Of a stretch of 64,000 nucleotides of DNA, positions 11,001 through 49,617 are shown piece after piece. Under the pieces are notes generated by a model that was not told the origin of the DNA, ran no database searches, and saw only the letters and a list, made by a program, of their open reading frames with translations. The translations under genes and the position numbers were made by a program. This DNA is from Escherichia phage vB_EcoS_FFH_1. The stretch lies in sequence record KJ190157. The stretch is one strand, 5' to 3'. Position 1 is the stretch's first letter, and each line of letters begins with the position of its first letter.

Positions 11001-11001
11001 A

Positions 11002-11703
11002 TCAAATTTTCATTTTTTCGATCATAGCTGCAACACAATAGCTTTCAACTAAGGCATCAAATGCAGGATCATGCTTAACCGGATAGATCCCATAACGAAT
11101 AGTGTCCATCTTCTCCATTTTAGCTATTGCCCAGCTAATACCTTCGGTCTCTAGAGCCTTATAACTGTATCCAGCTTGCATCCAGAGATTACGAAGAGAT
11201 CGAACATTGCCCAAATTCCAGAATTTCCACGGAACTACCTCTTCATTGGTTCCAGCATGGAACGTATTTGCAGAGTAGATAGTCATATCAAACTCTGGGC
11301 CATTGCCATAGTACAAAGCATTGTCGCCTAGAGCCAATTCCATAATATTTTGAGCCATAGAGAAGGCAGCATAGTTAGAGCCAAGTTTATTAGTGCAATG
11401 ATGTTTACCATTTTGGAAGGCAATCAGTTTTGGATTACGTTCCTTCATAGCTTCCATAATGTGGATAGCAGACGGGCTATTTTTAGCTTGATCCATCCAG
11501 AATGCTAGAGTAGATGCTGTAACTTTAGCACCAGAATTAAACTGATCTTGCACATCCAAAGTAACAAATACTAGATCAGGGTCTTTATCAATTCCATGCA
11601 TAGCCACAAAAGCGAAAGAAGGCATTGCGATATGAGTAGTACCACAATCTCCTGGAGTTCCTAGAGATTCAATATCTAGCATACCAAATGGTTTTACTTT
11701 CAT
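11002..11703 (-). CDS. DEDDh-family 3'-5' exonuclease (DnaQ-like fold)
   Basis: Exo I-like MLDIESLG and Exo III-like H-x4-D (HDPAFDA); RBS AAGGA. Confidence 0.55.
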   Translation of the reverse strand: MKVKPFGMLDIESLGTPGDCGTTHIAMPSFAFVAMHGIDKDPDLVFVTLDVQDQFNSGAKVTASTLAFWMDQAKNSPSAIHIMEAMKERNPKLIAFQNGKHHCTNKLGSNYAAFSMAQNIMELALGDNALYYGNGPEFDMTIYSANTFHAGTNEEVVPWKFWNLGNVRSLRNLWMQAGYSYKALETEGISWAIAKMEKMDTIRYGIYPVKHDPAFDALVESYCVAAMIEKMKI

Positions 11704-12805: not shown

Positions 12806-12843
12806 TATTTGTTTTCCTTTTTGTTTATCAATTTATGAAGTAT

Positions 12844-12872
12844 ATTATACAAGAATTTGAAGCGTTTAGCAA
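12844..12872 (-). promoter_or_regulatory. Conserved early promoter
   Basis: Minus strand TTGCTA-17-TATAAT. Confidence 0.6.
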
Positions 12873-12888
12873 ATGAATTTTTTAAAAA

Positions 12889-13167
12889 TTATCTACCAAC
12901 CATCTTGGCTTGTTCTGCATCGGAAACATATTGATACGCTCCTTTATTATACGCTGGAGCAGTACACATTTTCTTACGCTCAATCTCTTCTTGAGCTTTT
13001 CTTTCGCGTTCAGCTAATTCTTCATCCAGATAAACTAAACGTTGTTCTGGAGGAGGTGGAAGACGTGTTTCTGGCTCACCAATATTAGCCTTTCTTATTT
13101 GACGAGGTGATTGTGCACGTTTTCTCAACGGTTTAAATCCTAATGAATTTGAGTTATAAATTCGCAT
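12889..13167 (-). CDS. Hypothetical basic protein (92 aa)
   Basis: RBS GAGGAGGG. Confidence 0.45.
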   Translation of the reverse strand: MRIYNSNSLGFKPLRKRAQSPRQIRKANIGEPETRLPPPPEQRLVYLDEELAERERKAQEEIERKKMCTAPAYNKGAYQYVSDAEQAKMVGR

Positions 13168-13194
13168 AAAGCCCTCCTCACTTTCAATACGAAT

Positions 13195-13223
13195 ATTATA
13201 CTAAATTAGAGGGCTTTAAGCAA
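13195..13223 (-). promoter_or_regulatory. Conserved early promoter
   Basis: Minus strand TTGCTT-17-TATAAT. Confidence 0.55.
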
Positions 13224-13243
13224 GAAGATTTTTAATTTATTTA

Positions 13244-13720
13244 TCACATCTCGGCAAGTTCTTGCTCAGTAATAACTGTGTTACACAATGCATCTACAGC
13301 TTCATTACCACTAATACCAGAATGTCCTTTAACCTTAATAAAGGTAGGATTAGTATTATGAAAGTTGATATACTGCTGTGTTAATTTAAATGCTTCCTGC
13401 CAAAGTTCTAGATTAAGAGGAACTTCACCATCTGCTTTCTTCCAGCCTTTCCTTTGCCAAGAAAACATCCAACTTTCCATACCATTTTTGCAATAAGCAG
13501 AGTCAGTATAGATAGCAATTGGTCTATTATCTTTTTTAACAGACCAACGTAGAGCTTCTACAATAGCTGTGAGTTCCATCTCATTATTTGTAGTTTTAGG
13601 ATTATAACCAGATTTAGAACCTAAACGATCGTCGTTATCATCATAGACAATAAAACCCCAAGCACCTGGACCTGGGTTAGACTTACAAGCACCATCTGTG
13701 TAAATGTGGAAAACCGACAT
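13244..13720 (-). CDS. rnhA: Ribonuclease H (RNase HI family)
   Basis: YTDGAC, NNEMEL, YTDS, KGHSG motifs; start at the ATG overlapping the upstream stop (TAATG) with RBS GGAGG. Confidence 0.85.
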   Translation of the reverse strand: MSVFHIYTDGACKSNPGPGAWGFIVYDDNDDRLGSKSGYNPKTTNNEMELTAIVEALRWSVKKDNRPIAIYTDSAYCKNGMESWMFSWQRKGWKKADGEVPLNLELWQEAFKLTQQYINFHNTNPTFIKVKGHSGISGNEAVDALCNTVITEQELAEM

Positions 13721-14001
13721 TATACCTCCCAACTAATTTTAAGACCCATGTCTACAAAGGCGGCTTCTCGGTAGTATTGTGAGAGATGATACCCCTTATC
13801 CGATAAGGTTTTTAGTACCGATTTAGCTGCTCCTGGCATTTCTCTAGGATTATATAGCCACCTAGCGTAAGGATTATCTCGAATAATTACTTCTGTATTT
13901 CCAGACTTAGCAGCTTCTACAATCTTTTCTTCTATAAACTTTAGAAATGCGGGTACTTCTGTTAATCCTGCAAGTTCTTGGGCTTCTTTGGCTGAAATCA
14001 T
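13720..14001 (-). CDS. Hypothetical protein (93 aa)
   Basis: ORF. Confidence 0.45.
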   Translation of the reverse strand: MISAKEAQELAGLTEVPAFLKFIEEKIVEAAKSGNTEVIIRDNPYARWLYNPREMPGAAKSVLKTLSDKGYHLSQYYREAAFVDMGLKISWEV

Positions 14002-14026
14002 TGTATACCTCCAATTTATAAAATAT

Positions 14027-14055
14027 ATTATATTTAAATTTCACTAAATAAGCAA
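14027..14055 (-). promoter_or_regulatory. Conserved early promoter
   Basis: Minus strand TTGCTT-17-TATAAT. Confidence 0.55.
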
Positions 14056-14096
14056 ATGAAATTTAAATATAATAGCCCCCGAAAGGGCTATTTGAG

Positions 14097-16611: not shown

Positions 16612-16641
16612 TGATTTTCCTCTTTCTCACTATTTCAGGAA

Positions 16642-16670
16642 TATTATAGCAAATCTGGTAGCGATTAGCA
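16642..16670 (-). promoter_or_regulatory. Conserved early promoter upstream of nrdB
   Basis: Minus strand TTGCTA-17-TATAAT. Confidence 0.6.
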
Positions 16671-16677
16671 AATAAAA

Positions 16678-17160
16678 TTATAAACTATCAAGCTCCAATA
16701 GTTTAGCATCGCGCCATTCTATAGCATCCTCTAATTCTTTGAATGTTTTAGTATGTTTTACACCTTTTCTAGCAATCTGGACTTGGTAAGATCCGCTTGC
16801 TTTTTGGTGTATATTTTTAATACCTAACTTATTGTCTTTGTGCGCTCCGACATTCTTTCCATTGTTAAATCTATCAGATGCTAATAAATTAATTGCTCTA
16901 TTATCATGACGTATTCTGTTGTCATGGTCTACTTCTTTTGGAATGTATCCATGGGTGATATAGAATGCTAAGATATGTGCATAGTATTTTTTACCCCTTA
17001 CTTGCATTACTATGTATCCTGAACATTTTTCTAGAGAACCTGCTTCTTTGTCAGCAAACTTAGTATTAAAGGATTTATCTTCTCTAGGTCTGTGGGTAAA
17101 GATTCCGGTTTCTGGATTATAGTCAAATAACTCAGCTATTTCTTTGTATTTTTCTTCCAT
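16678..17160 (-). CDS. HNH homing endonuclease with a C-terminal AP2-like DNA-binding domain
   Basis: HNH motif EVDHDNRIRHDNRAINL; free-standing between nrdA and nrdB; weak RBS and no promoter of its own. Confidence 0.8.
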   Translation of the reverse strand: MEEKYKEIAELFDYNPETGIFTHRPREDKSFNTKFADKEAGSLEKCSGYIVMQVRGKKYYAHILAFYITHGYIPKEVDHDNRIRHDNRAINLLASDRFNNGKNVGAHKDNKLGIKNIHQKASGSYQVQIARKGVKHTKTFKELEDAIEWRDAKLLELDSL

Positions 17161-19589: not shown

Positions 19590-19618
19590 ATTCTACTTTA
19601 TTATCGGTCATTAGGCAA
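19590..19618 (-). promoter_or_regulatory. Early promoter upstream of nrdA (TTGCCT-17-TAGAAT)
   Basis: Plus attcta 19590-19595 and aggcaa 19613-19618. Confidence 0.5.
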
Positions 19619-20677: not shown

Positions 20678-20744
20678 TCCTATAGTGTACTTCGCTTCTA
20701 ACAGAGGATCAACAAAGAGATCTTGTTTATCAACTTACAAATAT

Positions 20745-20773
20745 ATTATAACAAGGTTTACAGCAAAAAGCAA
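20745..20773 (-). promoter_or_regulatory. Conserved early promoter upstream of phoH
   Basis: Minus strand TTGCTT-17-TATAAT. Confidence 0.6.
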
Positions 20774-20965
20774 GTATAATTTTAAATAAACCTATGATAT
20801 TGCTTTTAAGTAAAAAATTTACTTGCTTTTAACGTGAGATGTACGATACTAGATAATCATTTTATATCGCGTGCACGAGTGCGTGATTATACAATTTTTA
20901 ATAGAGGTTGGCAAATAAAATTTTTTGACTCAGATCATGTTACAGAACTTTATAGTAAAATATTA

Positions 20966-20994
20966 TTGACATCCGCCCTCGAATGAGTTATAAT
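20966..20994 (+). promoter_or_regulatory. Consensus sigma70 promoter (TTGACA-17-TATAAT) upstream of nrdD
   Basis: ttgaca 20966-20971 and tataat 20989-20994, then RBS GAAGGAGGG and ATG at 21024. Confidence 0.65.
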
Positions 20995-21023
20995 AGTAGT
21001 CTTAGTTAGAGAAGGAGGGTGTA

Positions 21024-22903: not shown

Positions 22904-22940
22904 TCAGCCGGGTTGCTAGTCGACCTGGCTTTTATTTTAT
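22904..22940 (+). terminator. Intrinsic terminator after nrdD
   Basis: Hairpin agccggg...cctggct followed by ttttatttta. Confidence 0.5.
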
Positions 22941-22969
22941 TTGCTTTCAGCCAAAAATTTATATATAAT
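22941..22969 (+). promoter_or_regulatory. PN25-like early promoter
   Basis: TTGCTTTCAG...TATAAT-AGATTTATAAATTTGAGGAGG, very similar to the T5 PN25 sequence recalled from memory. Confidence 0.65.
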
Positions 22970-22998
22970 AGATTTATAAATTTGAGGAGGTAGGAATT

Positions 22999-26113: not shown

Positions 26114-26155
26114 CCGTACTCAAGACCAATGATAGCACCATCCGGAAAATTTTAC

Positions 26156-26184
26156 TTGCAGGATGCCCAAAATCTTGATATAAT
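26156..26184 (+). promoter_or_regulatory. Early-type promoter (TTGCAG-17-TATAAT) with no ORF for about 490 nt downstream
   Basis: ttgcag 26156-26161 and tataat 26179-26184 followed by the conserved ATATTTATATTGAGAG box. Confidence 0.5.
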
Positions 26185-26676
26185 ATTTATATTGAGAGAC
26201 ATTAGTAAAAATTGATTTTGCTAATTTTTCTTGTTTACAATCCGCGATACGGAACAGTTAGGCTGCCCCATTAAGGGTTGTTTTAACTATTACTAGTGTT
26301 TATATTGCATTAGTTAATCTTCAATTAAGTGATCTGTGTACCCTGAATTCGGAAAGGTAAATCCAAACCGTGCATATTTAGCTCGTTATATAGGCAGAGC
26401 TTTATATGGGGGTGCGAACGAAAAGAGCAGCGAATGGCGGCACGTACAGTAGTCACCTACCAATAGGATAGTGAGGACAAATAGAATCGGCTTAGCGGCC
26501 AATGACCTAGGTTCTATTCTGTATATGAGCGAAGAGAGCACAGCACTGAGATATGATAACTTATTCATATTGTTTGATGATAATTGATGTTTACGTAAAT
26601 AGTAGTAATAGTTGTTCTATTCTTTCTGAATAGTCCTAAAGAAAAGATTTCTATTAATCAACACAGGAGTATTGTT

Positions 26677-29466: not shown

Positions 29467-29683
29467 AAAATGGGAAACAAGGAAGTTCCCAGTAAAAGAA
29501 CGTAAAGTTCCTGTTTATGATACTTCGGAAAAGCTATGTAGGGTGGTACCGCATAGATTAGCTGGTATCCCTAACATATCCGAATGGTTACTTAAACAAC
29601 GGAAAACAAACGTGTCTCTTCGCATCGGCTTTGAGTTAGATAAAGTCTATGCTGAACTTGCTTCTTTGCTCAAGGAATCGTAA
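29441..29683 (+). CDS. Hypothetical protein (80 aa)
   Basis: ORF overlapping the end of the previous gene. Confidence 0.35.
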   Translation: MLEMTVKNKKWETRKFPVKERKVPVYDTSEKLCRVVPHRLAGIPNISEWLLKQRKTNVSLRIGFELDKVYAELASLLKES

Positions 29684-29691
29684 AAATTTAT

Positions 29692-29720
29692 TTGCATAGT
29701 TCAAAAAATTTCTGTATAAT
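29692..29720 (+). promoter_or_regulatory. PN25-like strong early promoter
   Basis: AAAAATTTATTTGCAT...TCTGTATAAT-AGATTCATAAATTTGAGAGAGGAGTT, matching the T5 PN25 sequence recalled from memory across the -10 and downstream box. Confidence 0.75.
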
Positions 29721-29751
29721 AGATTCATAAATTTGAGAGAGGAGTTTAAAT

Positions 29752-30456
29752 ATGGCTGGTTCTCGCAGAAAGAAACATATCCATGAAATCCCGGATGAAG
29801 TCTTTAAAAAAGTTATAGAGCATCTGGAGAACGGTGGTACTAAGAAAGCAGCATGTGAAATGCTTGGCGTATCATCCAACCCAACTATGGAAAGGATGAT
29901 AGAAGAGTGGCAAGATCGCCAAATTCAAGTTGCCGAGATGAAGAAAAAGAAACGTGGCACACTCATTGAAGGCATTGAGTTGGCCAACGTTATTGAACAG
30001 TATCTATCTGGCGATTCTTTTGAAGAGATTGCCGATCGTAATTACCGCTCTGTAGCAATGGTTAAATCTGTTCTGGAACGCTATGGTGCTCTGCTTCGTT
30101 TGAACGATATTGTAGATCCATTGAATCCACCAATTATTCCTGATGATGCTGTAGCAGAAGAATTTGAGGTAGGTGAGCTTGTTTGGGTTCCTGGATACCA
30201 GTGTATCGGTGAAATCAAAAAAGCAATGGATACCCCTGTTGGTTGTTACCGTGTATGGCTTCTATCAGAAGGCAAACAACAGAACGTTCATTATATGAAT
30301 TATGAGTTGGCTTCTGTTAAACATCTGGAAAAGCTAGGGGTTGATGTAAAATCTCTAGGGTATAAGTGGACTCGTGAAGAAGTTATTACGTTGATTAACG
30401 AAGCTGTTAAGGCTGCCTTGAAACTTGATAAAGAAAAAGGAAAACGCCGTGAGTAG
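29752..30456 (+). CDS. DNA-binding protein with N-terminal helix-turn-helix (possible T5 D5 analogue)
   Basis: HTH-like GGTKKAACEMLGVS; driven by the PN25-like promoter with RBS GAGGAG. Confidence 0.5.
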   Translation: MAGSRRKKHIHEIPDEVFKKVIEHLENGGTKKAACEMLGVSSNPTMERMIEEWQDRQIQVAEMKKKKRGTLIEGIELANVIEQYLSGDSFEEIADRNYRSVAMVKSVLERYGALLRLNDIVDPLNPPIIPDDAVAEEFEVGELVWVPGYQCIGEIKKAMDTPVGCYRVWLLSEGKQQNVHYMNYELASVKHLEKLGVDVKSLGYKWTREEVITLINEAVKAALKLDKEKGKRRE

Positions 30457-30700
30457 ACTAACTGATTTACTTAAAGATGGGGAAATAAAAACACTATATC
30501 GTAGAAGCTGGGATAACGATAATAACGGCTTAGTGTTACTAACTTTAGATGCTGACTCGGATGTAGCTACTCAGCATACCTGGGTAGCCGGTAACTATCC
30601 ATATAGCGAGGTTGTTTCATTAACAGTATGCGAAGCTATTGCAGATGATTGGGAGGTTGCCAGCATCGAGGATATGCTCGCTGTTGGCCTGGTGGAGTAA
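30449..30700 (+). CDS. Hypothetical protein (about 83 aa)
   Basis: GTG start with RBS AAGGAA; overlaps the previous stop. Confidence 0.4.
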   Translation: MSRLTDLLKDGEIKTLYRRSWDNDNNGLVLLTLDADSDVATQHTWVAGNYPYSEVVSLTVCEAIADDWEVASIEDMLAVGLVE

Positions 30701-30717
30701 CTACTTAAAAATTTCAG

Positions 30718-30746
30718 TTGCTTAATCCTACAATTCTTGATATAAT
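30718..30746 (+). promoter_or_regulatory. Conserved early promoter
   Basis: TTGCTT-17-TATAAT. Confidence 0.6.
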
Positions 30747-30803
30747 ATTCTCATAGTTTGAAAGAACTATTCTGTTTAATTCTTAATTAAGGAAATATAA
30801 AAT

Positions 30804-31906: not shown

Positions 31907-31933
31907 TTCTTGGCTTTTTCTTTATAAATGTAT

Positions 31934-31962
31934 TTGCTTTCAACTCAGTTTTGTTATATAAT
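31934..31962 (+). promoter_or_regulatory. Conserved early promoter upstream of the ligase N-terminal ORF
   Basis: TTGCTT-17-TATAAT. Confidence 0.6.
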
Positions 31963-31993
31963 ATTTATATAAATTGATGAGAGATACAAATAA

Positions 31994-32965: not shown

Positions 32966-33015
32966 TACATAACCCTTTGCTACCCATCTACCATATCGGA
33001 ATTATAAAGTGGTTA

Positions 33016-33044
33016 TTGACATTTTCGCCGCTTAGGTATATACT
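33016..33044 (+). promoter_or_regulatory. Sigma70-type promoter TTGACA-17-TATACT inside the ligase split
   Basis: Shares the 13-mer ttgacattttcgc with the promoter at 4418. Confidence 0.45.
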
Positions 33045-33108
33045 ATTATCATTCAGTTGAGGGATAGAAAGTTATGGCGAGGGTAAGCAAAGTTAGTTAA
33101 AATTGTAG

Positions 33109-33137
33109 TTGCTAAATGCTTAAATACTTGCTATAAT
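33109..33137 (+). promoter_or_regulatory. Conserved early promoter upstream of the ligase C-terminal ORF
   Basis: TTGCTA-17-TATAAT. Confidence 0.6.
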
Positions 33138-33164
33138 ATTTATATAAATTGATAAGGAAGAAAT

Positions 33165-33947
33165 TTGATGAAAATCGAAATTCCAACACAATGTCCCTCT
33201 TGTGGTTCTAAGCTAGATCTTGTCAACGGACAATTATTCTGTCGTAATAAGTCCAACTGTCCAGCGCAATCAAGCAAGTTAATTGAGAACTTCTGTTCAA
33301 AAATGAAGTTAAAGGGCTTTGGCCCAAAAACTATTGAGAAGCTGGAGCTGACGAAGATTTCAGAACTATTTTACCTAACCGAAGAAGATTTGGTTAGAGT
33401 CGTGGGTAGCAAGGTTGCCGCTAAGTTAATTAGCGAATTAAATACTAAAGTTCGCGGAGACATTGACTTTGGTTCAGTTCTCGGTTCTTTAGGAATCCCT
33501 CTAATTGGAGAGGTTGCAGCAAAGAAATTATCCCAAAATTGCACTAGCTTCCACGATGTGAAGGCTGACGGCAAGGCTGGAGAAAATTACAAAGCCTGGC
33601 TAAATTCCCCACAAGGCAAGGATGTTATTGAACTACCGTGGAAATTTTCAACTGGTATTAAGGGCACTAAAGCTGACGTCATCATTACAGATGAATTAGT
33701 TGCCCAGCCAAATGGAATCGCGGTATGTATTACCGGATCTTTGCAAGATTTTGCAAATCGAACGGATGCAACAAACTATTTAGAAGGTCTAGGGTATACG
33801 GTTAAGAAATCCGTTACTAAAGACGTCAAATACCTAATCTGTGAGGATGAATCAAAACGTTCTTCCTCATCTTATAAGAAAGCCGAAACGAATGGGATAG
33901 AAATCCTGTCGATTAAAGAACTATTGGAGAAAAATAATAATGTCTAA
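33165..33947 (+). CDS. NAD-dependent DNA ligase, C-terminal part (Zn-finger, HhH, BRCT-like)
   Basis: Cys4 zinc finger CPSCGS...CRNKSNCPAQ, HhH-like FGPKTIEKL, C-terminal BRCT-like region. Confidence 0.7.
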   Translation: MMKIEIPTQCPSCGSKLDLVNGQLFCRNKSNCPAQSSKLIENFCSKMKLKGFGPKTIEKLELTKISELFYLTEEDLVRVVGSKVAAKLISELNTKVRGDIDFGSVLGSLGIPLIGEVAAKKLSQNCTSFHDVKADGKAGENYKAWLNSPQGKDVIELPWKFSTGIKGTKADVIITDELVAQPNGIAVCITGSLQDFANRTDATNYLEGLGYTVKKSVTKDVKYLICEDESKRSSSSYKKAETNGIEILSIKELLEKNNNV

Positions 33948-34707
33948 ACTGAACTGGAACGTAGAAGGTGTAACCGAGTCTCTGAAAGCAAAAGCCACTG
34001 CTCTGGGTGTTGCTGTAATCTCTCAAGAACAAGTAGCTGCTATCGCTGCTGAACTGGCTGCTGAAACTGGTAAAGACGTTACAGCTCGCTCTGTTGGCTC
34101 TAAACTGCGTAAAGAAGGTTTTGAAGTACAGAAAGCTAACGAAGTACAGAAATCCCCGTGGACTCCTGAGCAGGAAGCTGAACTGGTTGATTTCCTGAAC
34201 GCTCATGCTGGTCAGTATACCTATGCTGAAATCGCTGCTGCTGTAGCTGGTGGTCAGTTCGGTGCTAAACAGGTACAGGGTAAGATCCTGAGTCTGGAAA
34301 TGACCGCTTCTGTTAAACCAACTGAAAAAGCTGCTGCTGTTCGTTCCTTCACTCCTGATGAAGAAACTGATTTTGTTAATCAGGTTGTTGCTGGTGCTAC
34401 TATTGAAGCTATCGCTGCTCACTTCGGTCGTAATATCAAGCAGATCCGTGGTAAAGCTCTGAGCCTGCTTCGTGAAGGTCGTATCGCTGCTATGCCGGTA
34501 CAGGAAACCTCAAGTGCTAAAACTCGTGAAGATCTGTTAGAAGGTCTGGATCTGGCTAACATGACTGTTGCTGAGATCGCTGAGAAAACTGGTAAATCTG
34601 AGCGCGGTGTTAAATCTATGCTGTCTCGTCGTGGTCTGGTTGCTAAGGACTATGATGGTGCTGCTAAGCGTGCTAAACTGGATGCAAAAGCTGCGGCTGC
34701 TGAATAA
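33940..34707 (+). CDS. Protein with three tandem helix-turn-helix-like repeats and host-like codon usage
   Basis: Repeats TYAEIAAAVAG...LSLEM, TIEAIAAHFGRN...LSLLREG, TVAEIAEKTGKS...LSRRGL; strong GCT/CTG/GGT codon bias. Confidence 0.5.
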   Translation: MSKLNWNVEGVTESLKAKATALGVAVISQEQVAAIAAELAAETGKDVTARSVGSKLRKEGFEVQKANEVQKSPWTPEQEAELVDFLNAHAGQYTYAEIAAAVAGGQFGAKQVQGKILSLEMTASVKPTEKAAAVRSFTPDEETDFVNQVVAGATIEAIAAHFGRNIKQIRGKALSLLREGRIAAMPVQETSSAKTREDLLEGLDLANMTVAEIAEKTGKSERGVKSMLSRRGLVAKDYDGAAKRAKLDAKAAAAE

Positions 34708-36262: not shown

Positions 36263-37149
36263 GTAGAATAACAGAACTACTTGATCTGAAAGGCATTGAA
36301 TATAAAGACACAGGTGGGGACATCCTCATCTGTTGTCTCAATCCAGATCATGACGATAAACACCCAAGTTTGCGTATTGATCCTGAAACAGGTATTATGC
36401 ACTGCTTGAGTTGTGGCTTCGGTAAAGGTATACCGAGCATTTACCATTATTTTAATGAGACTCAGTACCGACAGTCTCCAAGACTATCACAGGTACGTAA
36501 AAAGATTTCAGAGATTAGGAATGGATCAACGAATCTTGCAATTCCTGAATCTGCTTACCTTTTCGAAGGTGATTTCCGAGGTATAAGTTCTAAGACCTTG
36601 AAGAAATATTTTGCTTTCCAACACCAAGCAGACTGGGAAGGCAGAATTGTATTCCCAATCACAGATGCTGTTGGACGCAATATCCTATTTTTGGGTCGTT
36701 CTATAAACAGTTCTGCCCCTCCTAAATACTTAGTAAAACCAAAACAAGTTTCACCGCCAATTTTTCCTGTACGATATAATACTCCAGTTCTTATTCTAGT
36801 TGAAGGCATCTTTGATATGCTGAACCTAGAGGATAATGGTATAGACTATGCTTCTTGCTGCTTTGGTACACATCAGTTTACTTCGGATAACATTGCAGAT
36901 AAGTTCAGTCCTTATATTATTGCTGGGGTAAAAGTTGTTGTTATCTTACTAGATAATGATGCTTCTGGTAATAAAGCTGCACAAGCATTGGCTAAGCTAA
37001 TTCGTACAAAAACGCGTTTAACACCTGTAGTTGCTAACTTCCTCCTGCCTGAAGGCAAAGATCCAGGTGATTTAAACAAAGATGAAATTGATATGTTAGC
37101 AAAACGTATTGAAATTTTAGTTGCTGAATCGCTTAAAGATTTGGTATAA
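36259..37149 (+). CDS. DNA primase (zinc-binding plus Toprim, DnaG-like)
   Basis: Zn motif CLNPDHDDKHPS...HCLSCG and Toprim acidic motif LLDNDASGNKAA. Confidence 0.8.
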   Translation: MSRITELLDLKGIEYKDTGGDILICCLNPDHDDKHPSLRIDPETGIMHCLSCGFGKGIPSIYHYFNETQYRQSPRLSQVRKKISEIRNGSTNLAIPESAYLFEGDFRGISSKTLKKYFAFQHQADWEGRIVFPITDAVGRNILFLGRSINSSAPPKYLVKPKQVSPPIFPVRYNTPVLILVEGIFDMLNLEDNGIDYASCCFGTHQFTSDNIADKFSPYIIAGVKVVVILLDNDASGNKAAQALAKLIRTKTRLTPVVANFLLPEGKDPGDLNKDEIDMLAKRIEILVAESLKDLV

Positions 37150-37211
37150 TATATTGGTAAGTTAGAGAAGAAACACTGAAGTTATACTTACTTACCAAGA
37201 GGAGATTAAAT

Positions 37212-40269: not shown

Positions 40270-41618
40270 AGGTTGTTATATCTAATAAAGCCTATTTCAA
40301 GCCCGATGATGAACTTTGGGATTATTGTAGTAAGCAAACCACTTATCATATAGAGACAATGACTAGTAAATACCCTATTATGTATAAGAATAGTGGTGTT
40401 GTTGCCAAAGAGATTAAGTGGATTCCTATTACGCGTCTGGACTTACTGGATGCTAAAGGAGTAAAATACGAATTAGTCGATAAACGCACATTAGCTCCGG
40501 TAGGTATACCAAAACCTAAGTTCAAGCTGCGTGAAGAAGATCAGCTTCCAATATACGAAGAATGCGATGATACCTGTATTATTAATGGTAAGCCTGGATT
40601 TGGTAAAACTATCCTAGCCCTTGCACTTGCGTATAAATTTGGCCAGAAAACTTTGGTAATTTGTACCAACACATCTATTCGTGAAATGTGGGCGGCAGAA
40701 GTTCGTAAATGGTTTGGGTTTGAACCAGGTATCATAGGTTCTGGGAAATACAATATTGATCCACCAATTGTGGTCAGTAATATTCAAACAGTGAATAAAC
40801 ATGCGAATAATCTTTCTAAAGTATTCGGTACTGTTATAGTTGATGAAGTTCACCATTGTGTGGCTACAACTTTCACTAACTTCCTAGAAATATCATGTGC
40901 TCGCTATAAGATTGGGCTATCTGGAACATTAAAACGTAAAGATGGTCTACAAGTTATGTTCAAAGATTTCTTTGGATATAAGATATTTAGCCCACCGGTT
41001 AATAATACTGTTGCACCTACAATCCATAGATACTCCGTACCTGTTGAGTTATCAGGGAACCAAAACGTACCATGGGCATTACGTGCTAACGATGTATATA
41101 ATCATCCTGAATATCGAGAGAATATTATAAATCTAGCACATTTATATGTGAATATGGGGCATAAAGTACTCATTGTAAGTGACAGAACAGAGTTAATCCA
41201 AACAGTACTAGAAGCTCTTGCGCAGCGTGGTGTTACAACATATGAAATTATAGGGGCAACTCACTTAGATGACCGATTAAAAATTCAGGAAGATATAGCA
41301 AAAGGTGGACCTTGTGTACTTGCAGCAGCTCAAAGTATCTTCTCTGAAGGTATTTCCCTTAATGAGCTATCTTGTTTAATAATGGGAAGCCTCATTAATA
41401 ATGAATCTCTCATTGAACAGCTTGCAGGCCGTGTTCAACGTATTGTCGATGGTAAACTCGACCCTATTGTTGTGGATCTGATTATGAAAGGTGGCACTGG
41501 ACTAAGACAGGCTTCTGGACGTATGGCAGTATATCGTAACAACGGGTGGAAAACTATTACTATGACTCCAGAGAAAGCAGTTCAATTAGCTAAAATTGCA
41601 TTTGGCAACAGCTTATAA
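40266..41618 (+). CDS. SF2 DNA helicase (DEVH box)
   Basis: Walker A GKPGFGKT and Walker B VIVDEVHH. Confidence 0.8.
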   Translation: MKVVISNKAYFKPDDELWDYCSKQTTYHIETMTSKYPIMYKNSGVVAKEIKWIPITRLDLLDAKGVKYELVDKRTLAPVGIPKPKFKLREEDQLPIYEECDDTCIINGKPGFGKTILALALAYKFGQKTLVICTNTSIREMWAAEVRKWFGFEPGIIGSGKYNIDPPIVVSNIQTVNKHANNLSKVFGTVIVDEVHHCVATTFTNFLEISCARYKIGLSGTLKRKDGLQVMFKDFFGYKIFSPPVNNTVAPTIHRYSVPVELSGNQNVPWALRANDVYNHPEYRENIINLAHLYVNMGHKVLIVSDRTELIQTVLEALAQRGVTTYEIIGATHLDDRLKIQEDIAKGGPCVLAAAQSIFSEGISLNELSCLIMGSLINNESLIEQLAGRVQRIVDGKLDPIVVDLIMKGGTGLRQASGRMAVYRNNGWKTITMTPEKAVQLAKIAFGNSL

Positions 41619-41630
41619 ATGATGTATAAT
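41602..41630 (+). promoter_or_regulatory. Early promoter P1 of a tandem pair (TTGGCA-17-TATAAT)
   Basis: Followed by the conserved box ATATACATAAATTTGAGAGAG but no ORF. Confidence 0.5.
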
Positions 41631-41701
41631 ATATACATAAATTTGAGAGAGAAAGTTTCGGATTGATAAGAAAGTCCAAAGCAGAAAAATAAAAATTTTA
41701 G

Positions 41702-41731
41702 TTGCTAAATTCTCTCGAAATATAGTATAAT
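41702..41731 (+). promoter_or_regulatory. Early promoter P2 of a tandem pair (TTGCTA-18-TATAAT)
   Basis: Followed by ATATACATAAATTCGAGGAG. Confidence 0.5.
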
Positions 41732-41837
41732 ATATACATAAATTCGAGGAGAAAACAAAATTAAATTCTTCAATTATGAAAAGCTATACTTATTAGCTAG
41801 AGGAAATTCCGACCTAATTATTAAGCTATTCAAAAGA

Positions 41838-42924: not shown

Positions 42925-43902
42925 ATGAGAATATTATTTAGTGCTGATCATCATATCAAACTAGGACAAGATAAAGTTCCAAAGGAATGGCAGAAGCGTC
43001 GTTTCCTGATGCTAGGAGAACGGTTAAATGATATATTCCATAATCATAACTGTGATCTTCATATTGCTGGTGGTGATATACTTGATGTTGCCGACCCGTC
43101 GTCAGAAGAAATAGAACTGCTTGAACAGTTCATGTCAAGACTCGACCATCCAGGAAAAATCTTTACTGGAAATCATGAAATGCTAACTAAAACCATTTCA
43201 TGTCTATATCATTATGCAGGAGTTATTAATAAAGTAACTAGTGGGAAGTGGGAAGTAATTACCAAACCATATCGTTCCCCTGAATTTGATATTGTTCCGT
43301 ATGATGAGATTCATAAACCTAAGTGGAAACCATCTGAATCAAAACTATGTTTCACGCATGTTCGTGGTGAAATCCCTCCGCATGTAAAACCAGAAATTGA
43401 TCTAACTAAGTATAACTGTTATGATACTGTAATTGCTGGCGATTTACATTCTTATACTAATAGTCAGACTATCGGATCTACTAGACTTCTCTACCCAGGG
43501 TCTCCATTAACTACATCGTTCCATAGAGAACGCACAAAAGGTACAAATGGTTGCTTTATCGTTGATACCGACACATTAAAAGTAGAATGGATTGAACTAG
43601 GTGATTTACCACAACTGATTCGTAGAACAATCGGAGCCGGTGAAGAGATGGAACCTAGTGATTATGATCGTGTAGTCTATGAAGTTACTGGTGACGTTGT
43701 TCAATTAAAGTCTATCAAAGACTCTGATTTATTAGATAAGAAGATTAACCATCGAGTTACTAAAGACGCTAAGTTAAATCTTGTTGATCTTGATATGTTA
43801 GGTGAACTTGAACTTTACTTCCGTGAAGTCGAGAAGCTATCTCAAGGCGACATTGATAGAATCTTGGCTAGAGCTGCGAAATATGTCAAAGATTACAATT
43901 AA
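42925..43902 (+). CDS. Mre11/SbcD-like nuclease (calcineurin-like phosphoesterase)
   Basis: Motifs SADHH, GGDILD, GNHE. Confidence 0.8.
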   Translation: MRILFSADHHIKLGQDKVPKEWQKRRFLMLGERLNDIFHNHNCDLHIAGGDILDVADPSSEEIELLEQFMSRLDHPGKIFTGNHEMLTKTISCLYHYAGVINKVTSGKWEVITKPYRSPEFDIVPYDEIHKPKWKPSESKLCFTHVRGEIPPHVKPEIDLTKYNCYDTVIAGDLHSYTNSQTIGSTRLLYPGSPLTTSFHRERTKGTNGCFIVDTDTLKVEWIELGDLPQLIRRTIGAGEEMEPSDYDRVVYEVTGDVVQLKSIKDSDLLDKKINHRVTKDAKLNLVDLDMLGELELYFREVEKLSQGDIDRILARAAKYVKDYN

Positions 43903-45721
43903 GACACTAAAATTTAGTAACGTTATGTCTTACGGTAAAGACATCGTAATTCATTTCGATAAGAATCCAGTTACTCAACTAATTGGTGGCAATGGGCTAG
44001 GGAAATCTACTATCGCCACGGTTATAGAAGAGCTATTCTATAATAAAAATTCTCGCGGTATTAAAAAGGATGCATTGTTCTCTTGGAATGCCCCTAAGAA
44101 AGAATATGATATGCACGCTTATTTCTCGAAAGATGATGATGAGTATGAGCTGCATAAAGTAGTTAAGTCAACTGCTAAAGTAACGTTGATTAAGAATGGG
44201 GAAGATATTAGTGGACACACTGCAACCCAAACATACAAGATGATTGAAGAGATTATGGGTGGTGACTTTCAAACATTCACCAAACTGATTTATCAATCAG
44301 TGGGTTCCAACCTAGATTTTCTAAAAGCAACGGATGCAACACGTAAGGCTTTTCTTGTTAACTTGTTCAATCAAGAGCAATACAAAGAAATGTCGGAAAC
44401 TGTTAAGGCTGACCGTAAAGAAATAGCAAATACCTTAAATAATTTGCAGGGCCAGATGGCTGTAATTACGAAAATCCTTAATGGGAAAAATAATCTAGGA
44501 ACTTTGCAGGAACCTGTAGAAGTACCGGAGTTTGATGAAGAACCATTAGCACAAGAACTTACTGAATCGAAAATTAAGGCGGCATTAGCCAAGTCTCAAG
44601 AGGCTAATATTACTAAATTGCGTAATTTGGACAAAGCTGTACAAGTTGCCGAACAATCTTTCGAGCCTTTCAAAAATTTGCCTGCGCCCACTGACCAAAA
44701 TGAAGAGATCTCGAGTGTTACGCGTGACCTAACGATTGTGACCTCACGTGCGAGCGAAGTTAAGAAACGTTATCAGAAGTTCAAGCAAGAGGCTTCAAAT
44801 ACTGAATGCCCTACTTGCGGTACTCACCTGGATACAACTGCTGCTAAAAAAGCAATGGATATGGCTAGAGTAGAATATGATCCTCTGTTCAAAGAGAAGC
44901 AATCTCTTGAAGCTAAGCTAGAACAGTTGAAGAAAGAACAACTTGAGTACGTTGCGTATACTAGAGCAAAGGATGCTTTGGATAAAGCAGTGGTAGCTAG
45001 AGACGAGTTCAAAAATTCAATGAGTGATGCTTCTTTTGAAGAACTCAATGTGCAAATCCTACAGGTGCAAATCCGACAATTAGAACAGGAAATCGCTGAT
45101 GGCCGCTCTAAAGTTGCAATTGCCAAAGAGCATAATGCAAATGTTGAATTAGCCAATGCAAAATATAAAGCGAAACTAGAACAGATTGAGAAAGCTGAGG
45201 CAGAAATGTCTGAGATTACTTCCAAACTGGATGGAGTATCAGAGGCTGTTGCTGATCTGGATATTCTGATCGCCGCATTGAAAAATCTGGTAGGGTATAA
45301 ACTAGAACATAGTGTGAAAGTATTTGAAGAGCTTATCAATAAATACCTTTCCATTATGACTGGCGGTAAGTTCGCACTTGGATTTGAGCTTGATGAAACA
45401 AAATTACAAGTAGTAATCTTCAATGATGGAAACCGTACCAGTATGGAGAACTGCTCTACTGGCCAGCAAAGTCGAATCAACCTAGCAACTCTGTTAGCTA
45501 TTCGAATGCTACTAACATCTATTAGTAAAGTTAATATTAATCTTCTATTCCTTGATGAAGTAATTAGCTTTATTGATACTAAAGGACTTGACACTCTTGT
45601 TGAACTATTAAATGAGGAAGAAAGTCTAAACTCTATCATTGTTTCTCATGGGCATACGCATCCATTAGCTCATAAGATTACTGTCAAAAAAGATGCAGAA
45701 GGATTTTCCTACTTAGAATAA
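43883..45721 (+). CDS. Rad50/SbcC-like ATPase
   Basis: Walker A GGNGLGKST, long coiled coil with CPTCG zinc-hook-like motif, C-terminal LLFLDEV. Confidence 0.8.
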   Translation: MSKITIKTLKFSNVMSYGKDIVIHFDKNPVTQLIGGNGLGKSTIATVIEELFYNKNSRGIKKDALFSWNAPKKEYDMHAYFSKDDDEYELHKVVKSTAKVTLIKNGEDISGHTATQTYKMIEEIMGGDFQTFTKLIYQSVGSNLDFLKATDATRKAFLVNLFNQEQYKEMSETVKADRKEIANTLNNLQGQMAVITKILNGKNNLGTLQEPVEVPEFDEEPLAQELTESKIKAALAKSQEANITKLRNLDKAVQVAEQSFEPFKNLPAPTDQNEEISSVTRDLTIVTSRASEVKKRYQKFKQEASNTECPTCGTHLDTTAAKKAMDMARVEYDPLFKEKQSLEAKLEQLKKEQLEYVAYTRAKDALDKAVVARDEFKNSMSDASFEELNVQILQVQIRQLEQEIADGRSKVAIAKEHNANVELANAKYKAKLEQIEKAEAEMSEITSKLDGVSEAVADLDILIAALKNLVGYKLEHSVKVFEELINKYLSIMTGGKFALGFELDETKLQVVIFNDGNRTSMENCSTGQQSRINLATLLAIRMLLTSISKVNINLLFLDEVISFIDTKGLDTLVELLNEEESLNSIIVSHGHTHPLAHKITVKKDAEGFSYLE

Positions 45722-46207: not shown

Positions 46208-47082
46208 TGAGTAAATCCTGGGGAAAATTTATTGAAGAAGAGGAAGCTGAAATGGCTTCCCGTCGTAACCTAATGATTGTCGATGGAACTAACTTAGGCT
46301 TTCGCTTCAAACATAACAATAGTAAAAAACCATTTGCCTCAAGTTATGTTTCCACTATTCAGTCTCTAGCAAAATCTTATTCTGCTAGAACTACAATAGT
46401 TTTAGGGGATAAAGGGAAGTCTGCATTTCGCCTAGAACATCTTCCAGAGTATAAGGGGAATCGAGATGAGAAATACTCTCAGCGTACGGAAGAGGAGAAA
46501 GCGTTAGATGAGCAGTTCTTCGAGTATTTGAAAGATGCTTTCGAACTATGTGAAACTACATTCCCAACCTTCACTATTCGTGGCGTAGAAGCAGATGATA
46601 TGGCAGCTTATATTGTTAAGCTGATTGGGCATCTATATGATCATGTTTGGCTAATTTCTACCGATGGTGACTGGGATACTTTATTAACTGATAAAGTTTC
46701 TCGCTTCTCTTTCACAACACGTCGTGAATATCATCTTCGTGATATGTATGAGCATCATAATGTTGACGATGTAGAGCAGTTCATCTCCCTGAAAGCAATT
46801 ATGGGTGATCTAGGGGATAATATCCGAGGTGTTGAAGGTATTGGGGCAAAACGCGGATATAATATTATTCGTGAATTTGGTAACGTTCTGGATATTATTG
46901 ATCAGCTTCCACTGCCTGGAAAACAGAAATATATACAGAATTTAAATGCTTCGGAAGAATTGCTTTATCGAAACCTAATTCTGGTTGATTTACCTACCTA
47001 CTGTGTGGATGCTATTGCTGCTGTAGGTCAAGATGTATTAGATAAGTTTACAAAAGATATTTTGGAGATTGCAGAACAATGA
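46207..47082 (+). CDS. Flap endonuclease / 5'-3' exonuclease
   Basis: N-terminal LMIVDGTNL and FEN-like acidic clusters; 291 aa matches the T5 D15 exonuclease length as recalled. Confidence 0.85.
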   Translation: MSKSWGKFIEEEEAEMASRRNLMIVDGTNLGFRFKHNNSKKPFASSYVSTIQSLAKSYSARTTIVLGDKGKSAFRLEHLPEYKGNRDEKYSQRTEEEKALDEQFFEYLKDAFELCETTFPTFTIRGVEADDMAAYIVKLIGHLYDHVWLISTDGDWDTLLTDKVSRFSFTTRREYHLRDMYEHHNVDDVEQFISLKAIMGDLGDNIRGVEGIGAKRGYNIIREFGNVLDIIDQLPLPGKQKYIQNLNASEELLYRNLILVDLPTYCVDAIAAVGQDVLDKFTKDILEIAEQ

Positions 47083-47525: not shown

Positions 47526-47754
47526 TTTTAGTGATCCTAATATGGTAGGTATTGATACTAGTATGTCAGCTTATCAGATTAAAACTACTAAACCAGAAAC
47601 GTTTGTGCTAAAAACAGATAAAGAAGGTAATGTTACTTTCTGGGATCCTGAAGGTTTTGTAGAGTTTTGTACTAATACTAATAATGAGCATTTAAAAATA
47701 CTATTAACTATCTATAATCTTGGTATTATAGAAGGTTGTAGAAGCAAGTAATAT

Positions 47755-47795
47755 AAAAACCCCAGCGGACAAAATCCGCTGGGGTTTCTTTTTAC
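47755..47795. terminator. Bidirectional intrinsic terminator between the early (plus) and late (minus) modules
   Basis: 10 bp GC stem ccccagcgga/tccgctgggg flanked by an A-run and a T-run. Confidence 0.7.
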
Positions 47796-47874
47796 TATGC
47801 GTATATAATTATCTATCTGGATTATTGAGCTGGTTCACAAGTTTTTCAGTTCGATTAATTCTTGCTCAAATTTG

Positions 47875-49617
47875 TTAGGAACCATTCGCTTCTTTTAATG
47901 CAGCTAATTCTGCTTCTAGGTTTTCCACCTTTTCCATCAAAGCAAGTATCGCCTCGTGGTGCAGTGCAGCTGCTACACCTGGCGTATTAACAGATTTTAT
48001 GTTATCCAACGTCGAACCGTCGCGCAGAGTAACAGGTGATGACTGAGTTTCAGATACTGCTTCAGGAAAGTCTTTCTCTACATCCTGAGCAATAAATCCA
48101 TACCCAACTGAGCCGTTTGTTTCTAGCACCCATTTAACCCCTTTAATGTTTCGCATCTTAGATAGTGGATCGTTTATACGCTCAATATTACTTTTAATGC
48201 GTTTGTCGGATAAGTTTCTCCATTCTTGACCTTTTGCTATACCATCCGTCCCAAAAAGATAAGATGCAGCTCCTCCGATTCCGTTATAGACATTAAGCTG
48301 TACTCTATCTAACAACGTATTACCGGAGCGAATACCACCAAACATCCAGTTTCCATCGTACCAATCGCCGCTTATAGTGTTTACATAATACCCTTCTGAC
48401 ACATTCGCGTAGTTAATCATTCTGATGGCGTTTCTTTCTATAGCGGCAACTCCAACAGAGTTTAATGGCTGTGCAACGAAGTCTTTTGCTCGTATGTATG
48501 CGTTAACCTGTAGCTCGCCATCAGACCTTAGCGTGCCAATTTGAGTTTCTGCGCTTGGGAAGTACAAAGTCCCAGCTTGATTAAATGACCACTCTTGAAC
48601 CCCGTTTGATATAACTGCACCTTGTTCAGACGTCAATCCATCAATCTTTCCGTAAGATTGCAGATATGCTTGATGCGTAGTAGTTGTGCCAATCTTGTAT
48701 TCTGACTTCACACTACCACCCCTTACAACTGTCCCAGTAGGAGGTTTGACAGCATCAGCGTTTATTACACTCCATGATGTATTTGCCGCAACGAAACCAC
48801 CGGACGCCCGTATTACCCACACCCCGACAAAGTTTCGTGTAAGAATCTCGTCGGTTGATGCTCCGTAAATCGGACTTGACATTGAGGCATTGAAGTCGCA
48901 GGTATTATAACGCCCGGCGAGCGCCGCTGTGCCTGGGGGTATACCGTCTCCTTTTCCTTCCGGAAATACATTATTACTTGCGGTAAAAGAACCGCCTGTC
49001 ATACCTAATACCTGGCCGTAAGTTTGAGCGGAATATGTGGTGAAAAAGCCTGTAATATTAGGCGCAGCAGATTCGAACAGTTGCCCATTTGCACCACTAT
49101 TCCCGCCATCTCCACGGCCATAAAGAGCACGTATTGATCCCTCCTGCACCCCATTCTTATCTGGAACACGAAAAGTTGTTGCTCCGTCACCATTAGAGTA
49201 TTTGCCACGCTGGAATTTATCCGCTAACCATACGGAATCCTCTATAACACCAACCATTTGAGCGTATGCCCAAAGCTCCGGCCAGTCAGCCCTGTTAAGA
49301 AGCTGCCCATCAGAAACTACTTCATAAGGTTGAATATACGCACGGCTATCGCGAAGGTGGAAATCACCAACACCGTAATTCATAACACCATTCATAGTGG
49401 GACCGACTGTACCGGTGTTAATCTTATTCTCTACCCAACGTTTAGTTGCGGCATCATAGTCCCCAACAGGATCTCCCGCAAGAGGGGTGGACCCAATAGG
49501 ACGCACATTTAACCATGCTGCTGCACGGTCTGCAAGATCGGATAAATTGTTGTTTTTATCCATCTTTTCGTCTTTAAGTTTTGTAATATCCTGGGGGATA
49601 TTAGTATAAGTAGTCAT
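47875..49617 (-). CDS. L-shaped tail fibre distal component with C-terminal intramolecular chaperone (self-cleaving S74-like) domain
   Basis: C-terminal region resembles the auto-processing chaperone domain of T5 pb1 and endosialidases as recalled. Confidence 0.65.
   Translation of the reverse strand: MTTYTNIPQDITKLKDEKMDKNNNLSDLADRAAAWLNVRPIGSTPLAGDPVGDYDAATKRWVENKINTGTVGPTMNGVMNYGVGDFHLRDSRAYIQPYEVVSDGQLLNRADWPELWAYAQMVGVIEDSVWLADKFQRGKYSNGDGATTFRVPDKNGVQEGSIRALYGRGDGGNSGANGQLFESAAPNITGFFTTYSAQTYGQVLGMTGGSFTASNNVFPEGKGDGIPPGTAALAGRYNTCDFNASMSSPIYGASTDEILTRNFVGVWVIRASGGFVAANTSWSVINADAVKPPTGTVVRGGSVKSEYKIGTTTTHQAYLQSYGKIDGLTSEQGAVISNGVQEWSFNQAGTLYFPSAETQIGTLRSDGELQVNAYIRAKDFVAQPLNSVGVAAIERNAIRMINYANVSEGYYVNTISGDWYDGNWMFGGIRSGNTLLDRVQLNVYNGIGGAASYLFGTDGIAKGQEWRNLSDKRIKSNIERINDPLSKMRNIKGVKWVLETNGSVGYGFIAQDVEKDFPEAVSETQSSPVTLRDGSTLDNIKSVNTPGVAAALHHEAILALMEKVENLEAELAALKEANGS

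Follow-up and report, generated by a model that had tools for sequence, protein, structure and literature searches.

The window analysed here, a 64,000-nucleotide stretch of DNA from Escherichia phage vB_EcoS_FFH_1 (KJ190157), carries at positions 29681-29751 the sequence TAAAAATTTATTTGCATAGTTCAAAAAATTTCTGTATAATAGATTCATAAATTTGAGAGAGGAGTTTAAAT, which is followed immediately by an ATG codon at 29752 (letters read from the window). A sequence-only reading had seen in this stretch a near-copy of the strong T5 promoter PN25 and one of a family of more than 20 conserved early promoters. The strings quoted in that reading are present, with AAAAATTTATTTGCAT at 29682-29697 and TCTGTATAAT/AGATTCATAAATTTGAGAGAGGAGTT at 29711-29746. 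The locus raises the question of whether this element is indeed PN25 as carried by another phage, and of how it relates to the other promoters of the window.

PN25 is the 'T5 promoter' of the pQE and pDS expression vectors and, under the name N25, serves as a model for promoter escape. Knowledge of PN25 and of the other T5 early promoters goes back to the 1980s, and Gentz and Bujard reportedly described the promoter together with an early-promoter consensus in 1985.

The PN25 locus and its T5 counterpart

In the T5 record (AY543070), whose promoters were annotated by hand, 'promoter P-N 25' is placed at 63043-63117, between T5.110 and D2 (T5.111). The window element occupies exactly the syntenic site, 3′ of the T5.110 ortholog and directly 5′ of D2. 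Specifically, the ORF on its 5′ side matches phrog_5291 and the ORF on its 3′ side matches phrog_3611 (D2 family). When the window was searched by BLAST with a 275-bp T5 query centred on P-N25, the query aligned to 29573-29847 with 91.7% identity (E 4.5e-110), whereas paralogous units gave only short matches to the T5 P-N25 query (78-93% identity, E 2e-12 or weaker). Similarity to the authentic promoter is thus well above the paralog level, which confirms the identification of the element as a near-copy of T5 PN25.

Measured against the 75-nt T5 annotation, 64 of 74 positions are identical (68 of 78 columns with gaps). The segment from −16 to +20 matches at 36 of 36 positions, and the window copy is the same as T5 PN25 from TTTCTG, across TATAAT and AGATTC, to the end of the 20-nt initial transcribed sequence. 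The PN25 sequence in the T5 record also agrees with a published PN25 primer, CATAAAAAATTTATTTGCTTTCAGGAAAATTTTTCTGTATAATAGATTCATAAATTTGAGAGAGGAGTT (PMC4447248).

A 2-kb query around the PN25 site matched 468 phage records, nearly all of them from T5-like phages of Salmonella, Escherichia and Klebsiella. Escherichia phage phiLLS and phage NBSal005 came closest, each at about 98%, and T5 itself (AY543070) matched the central 341 bp of the query at 92.4%. The window therefore belongs to a T5-like phage (Tequintavirus), of which it spans the early region and part of the late region, in keeping with the phage type that had been read from the promoter family. The parts of the promoter, together with the gene that it precedes, are as follows.

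29670-29746, plus strand: PN25 ortholog, whole unit (about −57 to +20), 5′ of D2; maps to AY543070 63043-63117, 'promoter P-N 25'
29673-29691, plus strand: A/T-rich upstream (UP-like) element GAATCGTAAAAATTTAT, from the sequence; the AAAAWT block of the family carries 1.0-1.6 bits per position
29692-29697, plus strand: −35 hexamer TTGCAT (T5: TTGCTT); allele common to five contigs of related phages
29698-29714, plus strand: 17-bp A/T-rich spacer AGTTCAAAAAATTTCTG (T5: TCAGGAAAATTTTTCTG; 7 differences)
29715-29720, plus strand: −10 hexamer TATAAT, invariant in 24 orthologs
29721-29726, plus strand: discriminator AGATTC with G at −5, identical to N25
29727-29746, plus strand: inferred +1 (A) and initial transcribed sequence ATAAATTTGAGAGAGGAGTT, 20 of 20 positions identical to T5
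29752-30456, plus strand: D2 gene, 234 aa, first gene of the transcript (phrog_3611, E 3e-128; T5.111 D2)

The core of the ortholog comprises a TTGnnn −35 element, a 17-bp spacer, TATAAT, a 6-bp discriminator with G at −5, and a start at the A of ATAAATTT. The −35 hexamer matches the consensus at three of six positions, and so does the T5 hexamer TTGCTT. Because TATAATAGATTCAT spans −12 to +2 of T5 N25 (Klimuk et al., 2020; PMC7472727), we infer by homology that +1 of the window promoter is the A at 29727. With this numbering, the Shine-Dalgarno sequence AGGAG of the D2 leader (29740-29744) spans +14 to +18, and the D2 ATG follows at +26. On the other side of the core, the TAA stop codon of the preceding 80-aa ORF (29681-29683) falls within the A/T-rich tract of the promoter.

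The window copy and T5 PN25 are alike in genomic position, upstream A/T tract, 17-bp spacing, TATAAT, AGATTC, the 20-nt initial transcribed sequence and the Shine-Dalgarno sequence. The differences are clustered. The window copy has TTGCAT in place of TTGCTT and seven substitutions in the spacer, its upstream A-tract is shorter by one A, and it has an extra T between the Shine-Dalgarno sequence and the ATG. The same T occurs in all 21 non-T5 sequences that were read from IMG/VR (see below).

These similarities make it very probable that 29670-29746 is the ortholog of the T5 early promoter PN25, a strong promoter that would be used by host sigma-70 RNA polymerase to start the D2 transcript at 29727. 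All temporal classes of T5 genes are transcribed by the host sigma-70 enzyme (PMC7472727). The T5 promoter combines TTGctt, a 17-bp spacer and a consensus −10 with an UP element, an A/T-rich UP-like tract in the spacer and a 6-bp G−5 discriminator; its open complexes are extremely stable, and promoter escape is rate-limiting (Hsu and Han, 2025; PMC12464699). Replacement of +3 to +20 of N25 lowers full-length RNA about ten-fold through impaired promoter escape (PMC12464699).

Since every feature except the exact −35 and spacer is kept, the window copy is expected to work as T5 N25 does. The weak −35 (3/6) would be offset by the A/T-rich upstream element, by a consensus −10 placed at the best spacing (17 bp) and by the G−5 discriminator. 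The resulting open complexes, by homology with those established for T5 N25, should be very tight and long-lived. The initial transcribed sequence, which begins ATAAATTTGAGAG, would set the rate at which polymerase escapes, and would also provide an A/U-rich leader and the Shine-Dalgarno sequence that precedes the ATG.

Among other promoters, lambda PR resembles N25 in its near-consensus core, 17-bp spacing, UP element and 6-bp G−5 discriminator (Hsu and Han; PMC12464699). PR differs in that it has neither a family of 25 paralogs nor an ATAAATT start box, and its repressor operators have no counterpart here.

The early promoter family of the window

Scanning 20-40 kb for the generic sigma-70 consensus returned 51 sites when 58.8 were expected, and hence no enrichment. 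Because such a scan is uninformative in this A/T-rich DNA, we used a pattern specific to the family, and only this pattern carries statistical weight. TTGC-N19-TATAAT has 21 exact matches, compared with a mean of 0.33 and a maximum of 2 in 100 dinucleotide shuffles. By also allowing 18-bp spacers and TTGG, 25 units were reached. A two-block weight matrix scored 24 of the sites at 34-61 bits against a best score of 13.1 in 40 shuffled windows, although this matrix was trained on the same sites and is descriptive only. An additional candidate on the minus strand at 19618 (20.2 bits with the weight matrix) was left out; it is located inside the 5′ end of nrdA and has no T5 annotation.

All 25 units are located in the early region, and each coincides with a T5-annotated promoter site (52-75 identical positions of 63-75 aligned). 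The T5 names covered are P13a, P14a/b, P15a/b/c, P16-17, P-D/E33, P-H207, P-N25, P-N26, P-K28a and P31A/B, to which eleven unnamed promoters are added. The prediction of more than 20 conserved early promoters is thereby borne out. Together with three early-region promoters outside the family and one late promoter, the units give 29 promoter positions with T5 names, which is their value for annotation. PN25 (−35 at 29692) is described above and the other 28 are listed here, with the first base of the −35 in brackets for members of the family.

155-231, minus strand (209): family, T5 P13a (T5 alignment and pattern)
1682-1758, minus strand (1736): family, T5 P14b (T5 alignment and pattern)
2399-2475, minus strand (2453): family, T5 P14a; drives a tRNA cluster (tRNA-Tyr at about +60)
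2770-2847, minus strand (2825): family, T5 P15c, 18-bp spacer; 75/75 identical
3692-3768, minus strand (3746): family, T5 P15b; tRNA-Ser about 9-10 nt past the start site
4247-4323, minus strand (4301): family, T5 P15a; early by primer extension in T5
4396-4472, plus strand: non-family, T5 P12; TTGACA / TTTTCGCTGGGGTAGTG / TAAAGT
8097-8173, minus strand (8151): family, T5 P16-17; drives the stable-RNA/tRNA region
8779-8855, minus strand (8833): family, T5 P-D/E33
9619-9695, minus strand (9673): family, unnamed T5 promoter 43067-43141
10946-11022, minus strand (11000): family, unnamed T5 promoter 44393-44467
12818-12894, minus strand (12872): family, T5 P-H207
13169-13245, minus strand (13223): family, T5 promoter 46337-46411
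14001-14077, minus strand (14055): family, T5 promoter 46937-47011, upstream of thy
16617-16693, minus strand (16671): family, upstream of nrdB, T5 50061-50135
20719-20795, minus strand (20773): family, upstream of a phoH-like gene, T5 53638-53712
20860-20936, minus strand (20914): marginal family member (10.2 bits), TTGCCA-17-TATAAT without the conserved start region, T5 53776-53850
20944-21020, plus strand: non-family, nrdD promoter, full-consensus TTGACA-17-TATAAT (−35 at 20966), T5 53884-53958
22919-22995, plus strand (22941): family, T5 55708-55782
26134-26210, plus strand (26156): family, T5 58999-59073; followed by about 490 untranslated nt
30696-30772, plus strand (30718): family, T5 P-N26, upstream of D3; 75/75 identical
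31912-31988, plus strand (31934): family, upstream of ligA, T5 65284-65358
32994-33070, plus strand: non-family, T5 P-K28b; TTGACA / TTTTCGCCGCTTAGGTA / TATACT; 75/75 identical
33087-33163, plus strand (33109): family, T5 P-K28a, upstream of ligB and D5; 75/75 identical
37099-37176, plus strand (37121): family, within the 3′ end of the primase gene, upstream of pol, T5 70987-71061
41580-41656, plus strand (41602): family, T5 P31A (−35 TTGGCA), in the 3′ end of the D10 helicase gene
41680-41757, plus strand (41702): family, T5 P31B, 18-bp spacer
58293-58369, minus strand: late promoter, T5 P-G25 (TTGATA-17-TATAAT), without an early-type start region

Primer extension in T5 has classified P15A and Ppol as early and PG25 and PJ5 as late (PMC7472727); the unit at 37099-37176 is presumably Ppol.

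Alignment of all 25 units revealed strong conservation outside the hexamers, with the consensus AAAAWT upstream, TTGCTw, 17-18 bp, TATAATA and an ATAAATT start region. By column, TTGC is found in 24-25 of 25 units, TATAAT in 25, the A after the −10 in 24, AAAA.T in 22-25 and the ATAAATT block in 17-21. Site selection had made no use of the AAAA.T block (5-10 nt before the −35), the A after the −10, the AT-rich discriminator or the ATAAATT block, and among these positions an A 7 nt and a T 5 nt before the −35 are each present in 25 of 25. PN25 departs from the consensus TTGCTw/TATAATA/AAAAATT/TAAATT only at position 5 of the −35.

All 25 units are on the strand of the genes that follow them: each of the 16 in the leftward block is on the minus strand, and each of the 9 in the rightward block is on the plus strand. 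The point of divergence between the two gene blocks, at about 20.9 kb, is also where the GC skew changes sign. The units would head the early transcription units of both divergent blocks, tRNA clusters included. The statement that most genes in the window carry a similar unit was too strong, as about a third of the genes have one of their own. For some 68 ORFs and 10-12 tRNA genes, the early part contains 28 promoter units; in the late part (16 kb) the P-G25 ortholog was the sole promoter found. The weight matrix detected no family members in 42-64 kb apart from a weak match at P-G25. An Rfam scan of the window returned tRNAs only.

The conserved downstream box of these units might be mainly a translation signal, an A/U-rich enhancer with a Shine-Dalgarno sequence, that lies outside the promoter proper. 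Most units do carry an SD-like GAGG or AGGA at +9 to +22 with an ATG at +20 to +35, and PN25 itself, with its AGGAG and ATG placed as given above, conforms to this arrangement. Yet the ATAAATT core (+1 to +7) is also kept where tRNA or stable-RNA genes, and no coding sequence, follow the unit: a tRNA-Ser begins at about +10 after unit 3746, a tRNA-Tyr lies at about +60 after unit 2453, and a stable-RNA region follows unit 8151. Conservation where no protein is made marks the ATAAATT start region as a promoter-level feature, and the loss of productive RNA on replacement of the N25 initial transcribed sequence likewise acts through escape. A mainly translational role is consequently unlikely. 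The two roles probably coexist, with the start box acting in transcription and the GAGAGG part (+9 to +22) in translation.

According to Klimuk et al. (2020; PMC7472727), T5 early promoters have a common ATATT-type discriminator, and gpT5.026 binds the polymerase beta subunit, loosens discriminator contacts and is required for a normal shift from early to late. The discriminator and start region shared by the window units may offer the route, proposed in T5, by which gpT5.026 turns early promoters down at the early-to-late switch. An exact ATATT discriminator is present in about 8 of the 25 units. That of PN25 is AGATT, unlike the ATATT consensus said to typify early promoters.

The family consensus is the one that Niu et al. 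(2012; PMC3326045) described for phage AKFV33, in which TTGCTw, 17-18 bp and TATAATA are combined with AAAAATT near −43 and with TAAATT at +1. Compared with the early families of AKFV33 and T5 (PMC3326045; PMC7472727), the window family has the same consensus, with ATATT-like discriminators as a consensus trend only, and there is no difference of substance. AKFV33 has 32 promoters in a whole genome and the window 25 in 64 kb; with respect to T5, exact ATATT is found in only about a third of the window units. PN25, the family and its consensus are already published (Niu et al., 2012; Klimuk et al., 2020) and the sites are annotated in AY543070, so that none of these is new. The main worth of the present analysis is annotation, in that it establishes the identity of the window, assigns T5-named promoter positions and documents a natural PN25 allele.

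A natural allele of PN25

In a site-by-site comparison with T5, PN25 is among the less conserved units; over 74-75 nt, P-N26, P-K28a, P-K28b, P15b, P15c and the pol promoter do not differ from T5 at any position. The PN25 divergence is concentrated in a −35/spacer patch of 23 positions, 8 of which have another base than in the characterised T5 allele. The window allele keeps the spacing, the A/T-rich character of the spacer and everything from −16 on.

Relatives were gathered by anchoring on the D2 N-terminal coding sequence, which leaves the promoter itself unselected, and this yielded 22 IMG/VR contigs of T5-like phages. Their upstream regions are of two types. The T5 type reads TTGCTT-TCAGGAAAA(A)TTTTCTG, and the window type, found in five contigs (L005, L007, L008, L010 and L015), reads TTGCAT-AGT(T/G)CAAAAAATTTCTG. 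The segment from −16 to +20 is invariant in 24 sequences, except that two contigs carry one more GA within the GAGAG run. By this comparison of sequences, the window patch is a natural allele that is maintained in at least five other sequenced T5-like phages.

A patch of differences between perfectly identical flanks, in one of 25 copies of a unit, also invites the idea that these units of about 70 bp are mainly dispersed recombination or mobile cassettes that shuffle genes, with the PN25 patch acquired by gene conversion. Promoter-stem-loop cassettes that shuffle genes have been proposed for T4-type phages. Moreover, different units cross-match in BLAST (72-97% identity over 25-84 bp), and a homing-endonuclease gene shifts place beside unit 16671. 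Against this, all units are at T5-syntenic positions, and strand concordance and published promoter function account for their conservation without mobility. The patch, GCATAGTTCAAAAAATTT, has no second site in the window within 3 mismatches, and in other loci it occurs at the PN25 position only. As nothing else in the window resembles it, there is no sign that the patch was copied from a paralogous promoter, and gene conversion was dropped as its origin. We regard the cassette explanation as highly improbable, and treat the patch as allelic variation of an orthologous promoter.

Because 8 of the 23 patch positions differ from the characterised allele, the strength and escape kinetics of the window allele may differ from those of T5 PN25. 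With its identical −10, discriminator and initial transcribed sequence, this natural allele could be used as a ready-made variant in N25 promoter-escape assays.

TTGACA-type promoters and the shared 13-mer

The promoters at 4418 and 33016 had been set apart in the sequence-only reading as a possible second class, on the strength of a shared core. Each carries the exact 13-mer TTGACATTTTCGC, and they correspond to T5 P12 (−10 TAAAGT) and T5 P-K28b (−10 TATACT), respectively. Both score less than 8 bits with the family matrix and are thus outside the early family. A third non-family site is the nrdD promoter (20966), which is a perfect TTGACA-17-TATAAT.

We compared these three with T5 P-H22 and P-D/E20 (pre-early) and P-J5 (late). 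All have TTGACA and a spacer richer in G+C, and all lack the early start box. The imperfect −10 of the T5 promoters is also seen in P12 and P-K28b, whereas the nrdD promoter has both hexamers perfect. The 1985 abstract of Gentz and Bujard reportedly states that a consensus −35 and a consensus −10 do not co-occur in strong T5 promoters. The window promoters differ from the T5 promoters in that they sit in the early region. A structurally different minority promoter type therefore exists, and it is already annotated in T5.

What remained to be weighed is whether 4418 and 33016 form a separately regulated second class in which TTGACATTTTCGC is functional, for example as the binding site of a phage regulator, overlapping the −35. 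The 13-mer lies at the −35 of two intergenic, correctly oriented promoters that are annotated in T5, and both of its sites lack the upstream and start boxes of the family. The combination of TTGACA, G+C-rich spacer and imperfect −10 recurs in P-H22, P-D/E20 and P-J5, which indicates that a structural 'type II' exists. In addition, that two of three TTGACA promoters share the next 7 nt has, by our estimate, a chance of roughly 1e-4 per pair.

The behaviour of this heptamer in relatives argues in the opposite direction. At P12 it is the most variable stretch among 17 relatives, where it reads TTTTCGC, TTTTAGC, TTTTTGT, TTTTCTC (T5) or TTTTTGC; it is changed in 4 of 10 haplotypes, whereas the hexamers and the downstream 40 nt are invariant. 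Among the TTGACA-type promoters compared, only P12 and P-K28b have the TTTTCGC extension, which is absent from nrdD, P-J5, P-H22 and P-D/E20. The two sites exhibit no dyad symmetry and no likeness beyond the 13-mer, and a literature search found no temporal data for P12 or P-K28b. Finally, TTGACA-N16-18-TAnnnT occurs 3 times in the window when 3.3 occurrences are expected, and the TTGACA-type set, which this count leaves statistically unsupported, is recognized only through synteny with T5-annotated promoters.

Because the P12 heptamer varies among relatives and the TTGACA pattern is not enriched, the 13-mer defines no class. The distinct architecture of the two promoters and their position outside the family stand, and their separate regulation through the 13-mer is unlikely.

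There is a slim chance that P12, P-K28b and the nrdD promoter constitute a separately timed set within the early region, and TTGACATTTTCGC would then be more than coincidence. If they were separately timed, their genes could be expressed outside the normal early window, because these promoters lack the discriminator and start box that are the proposed route of early turn-down. P-K28b is located just upstream of ligB and D5. A literature search on D5 and late transcription returned nothing relevant; D5 is a DNA-binding protein needed for late transcription.

Predicted nrdD promoter and a possible promoter site within nrdA

Two promoter-like sites lie at nrd genes, one on each strand.

20966-20994, plus strand: predicted nrdD promoter, TTGACA-17-TATAAT
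19590-19618, minus strand: family-like site, aaaattttat TTGCCT-17-TAGAAT attcc

Both hexamers of the predicted nrdD promoter are perfect and optimally spaced, and the T5 nrdD promoter carries the same two perfect hexamers at the same spacing. According to Hsu and Han (PMC12464699), the full consensus occurs in no natural sigma-70 promoter. The predicted promoter shares a divergent region of 340 bp with two leftward promoters, whose -35 elements begin at 20773 and 20914. The second site resembles the 25 early promoters of the family and scores 20.2 bits with the weight matrix trained on them, versus a shuffle maximum of 13.1. It falls inside nrdA, in the opening ~20 codons, and has no annotated promoter at the same place in T5. 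This site may be a remnant, or it may act as a promoter from within the gene.

The D5 operon

The operon headed by P-K28b, a TTGACA-type promoter outside the family, and the family promoter P-K28a includes the following gene.

33940-34707, plus strand: D5 ortholog, DNA-binding protein

The T5 record (AY543070) describes D5 as needed for late transcription and early shut-off. Residues 204-230 of the ortholog match the Pfam model Sigma70_r4_2 (E 7.7e-7) at 29.1 bits, above the curated cut-off of 25.7 bits. The region 4 module of sigma is the part that reads -35 elements.

Between P-K28b and P-K28a there is also a mini-ORF of eight codons (MARVSKVS*; 33074-33100, plus strand). A Shine-Dalgarno-like GAGGGA is located 9 nt 5′ of it, and at its other end the stop codon overlaps the A/T tract that forms the upstream part of P-K28a. 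The region is near-invariant among 27 relatives.

A long ORF-free stretch and candidate RNAs

From the promoter at 26156 to the gene for the replication-origin-binding protein, ~490 nt (26191-26676, plus strand) contain no ORF on the coding strand, and T5 has the same ORF-free stretch before this gene. No Rfam family matched this stretch. It may serve as a long leader, encode an RNA that is missing from the annotation, or be related to an origin. Rfam tRNA models matched two other sites, neither of which was called by ARAGORN.

3533-3607, minus strand: tRNA-model match, 40.3 bits
7813-7884, minus strand: tRNA-model match, 35.5 bits

The latter falls in a region annotated in T5 as the stable 'RNAX'.

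Endonuclease genes, the P-G25 ortholog and the ltf locus

16678-17160, minus strand: HNH endonuclease ORF (Pfam HNH_3, phrog_99)
58291-58369, minus strand: P-G25 ortholog, a late promoter

The HNH endonuclease ORF lies upstream of the promoter at 16671; in T5, hegH is found on the downstream side of this promoter's ortholog. Two further T5 homing-endonuclease genes are absent from the window: hegI, between T5.108 and T5.110 (junction ~29450), and hegJ, which in T5 separates D6 from the primase gene (junction ~36260).

The P-G25 ortholog is followed by ATTAAAGAGGAGAAATTAACTATGAGA, the sequence known as 'RBSII', which serves as a ribosome-binding site in pQE/pDS expression vectors. At 47749-52345 the window lacks equivalents of two T5 features, the promoter at 81735-81809 and ltf, the gene for the L-shaped tail fibre; only the terminator flank aligns. 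In this interval ltf is replaced by ORFs of 580 and 816 aa, an organization that resembles the AKFV33 arrangement (Niu et al., 2012; PMC3326045).
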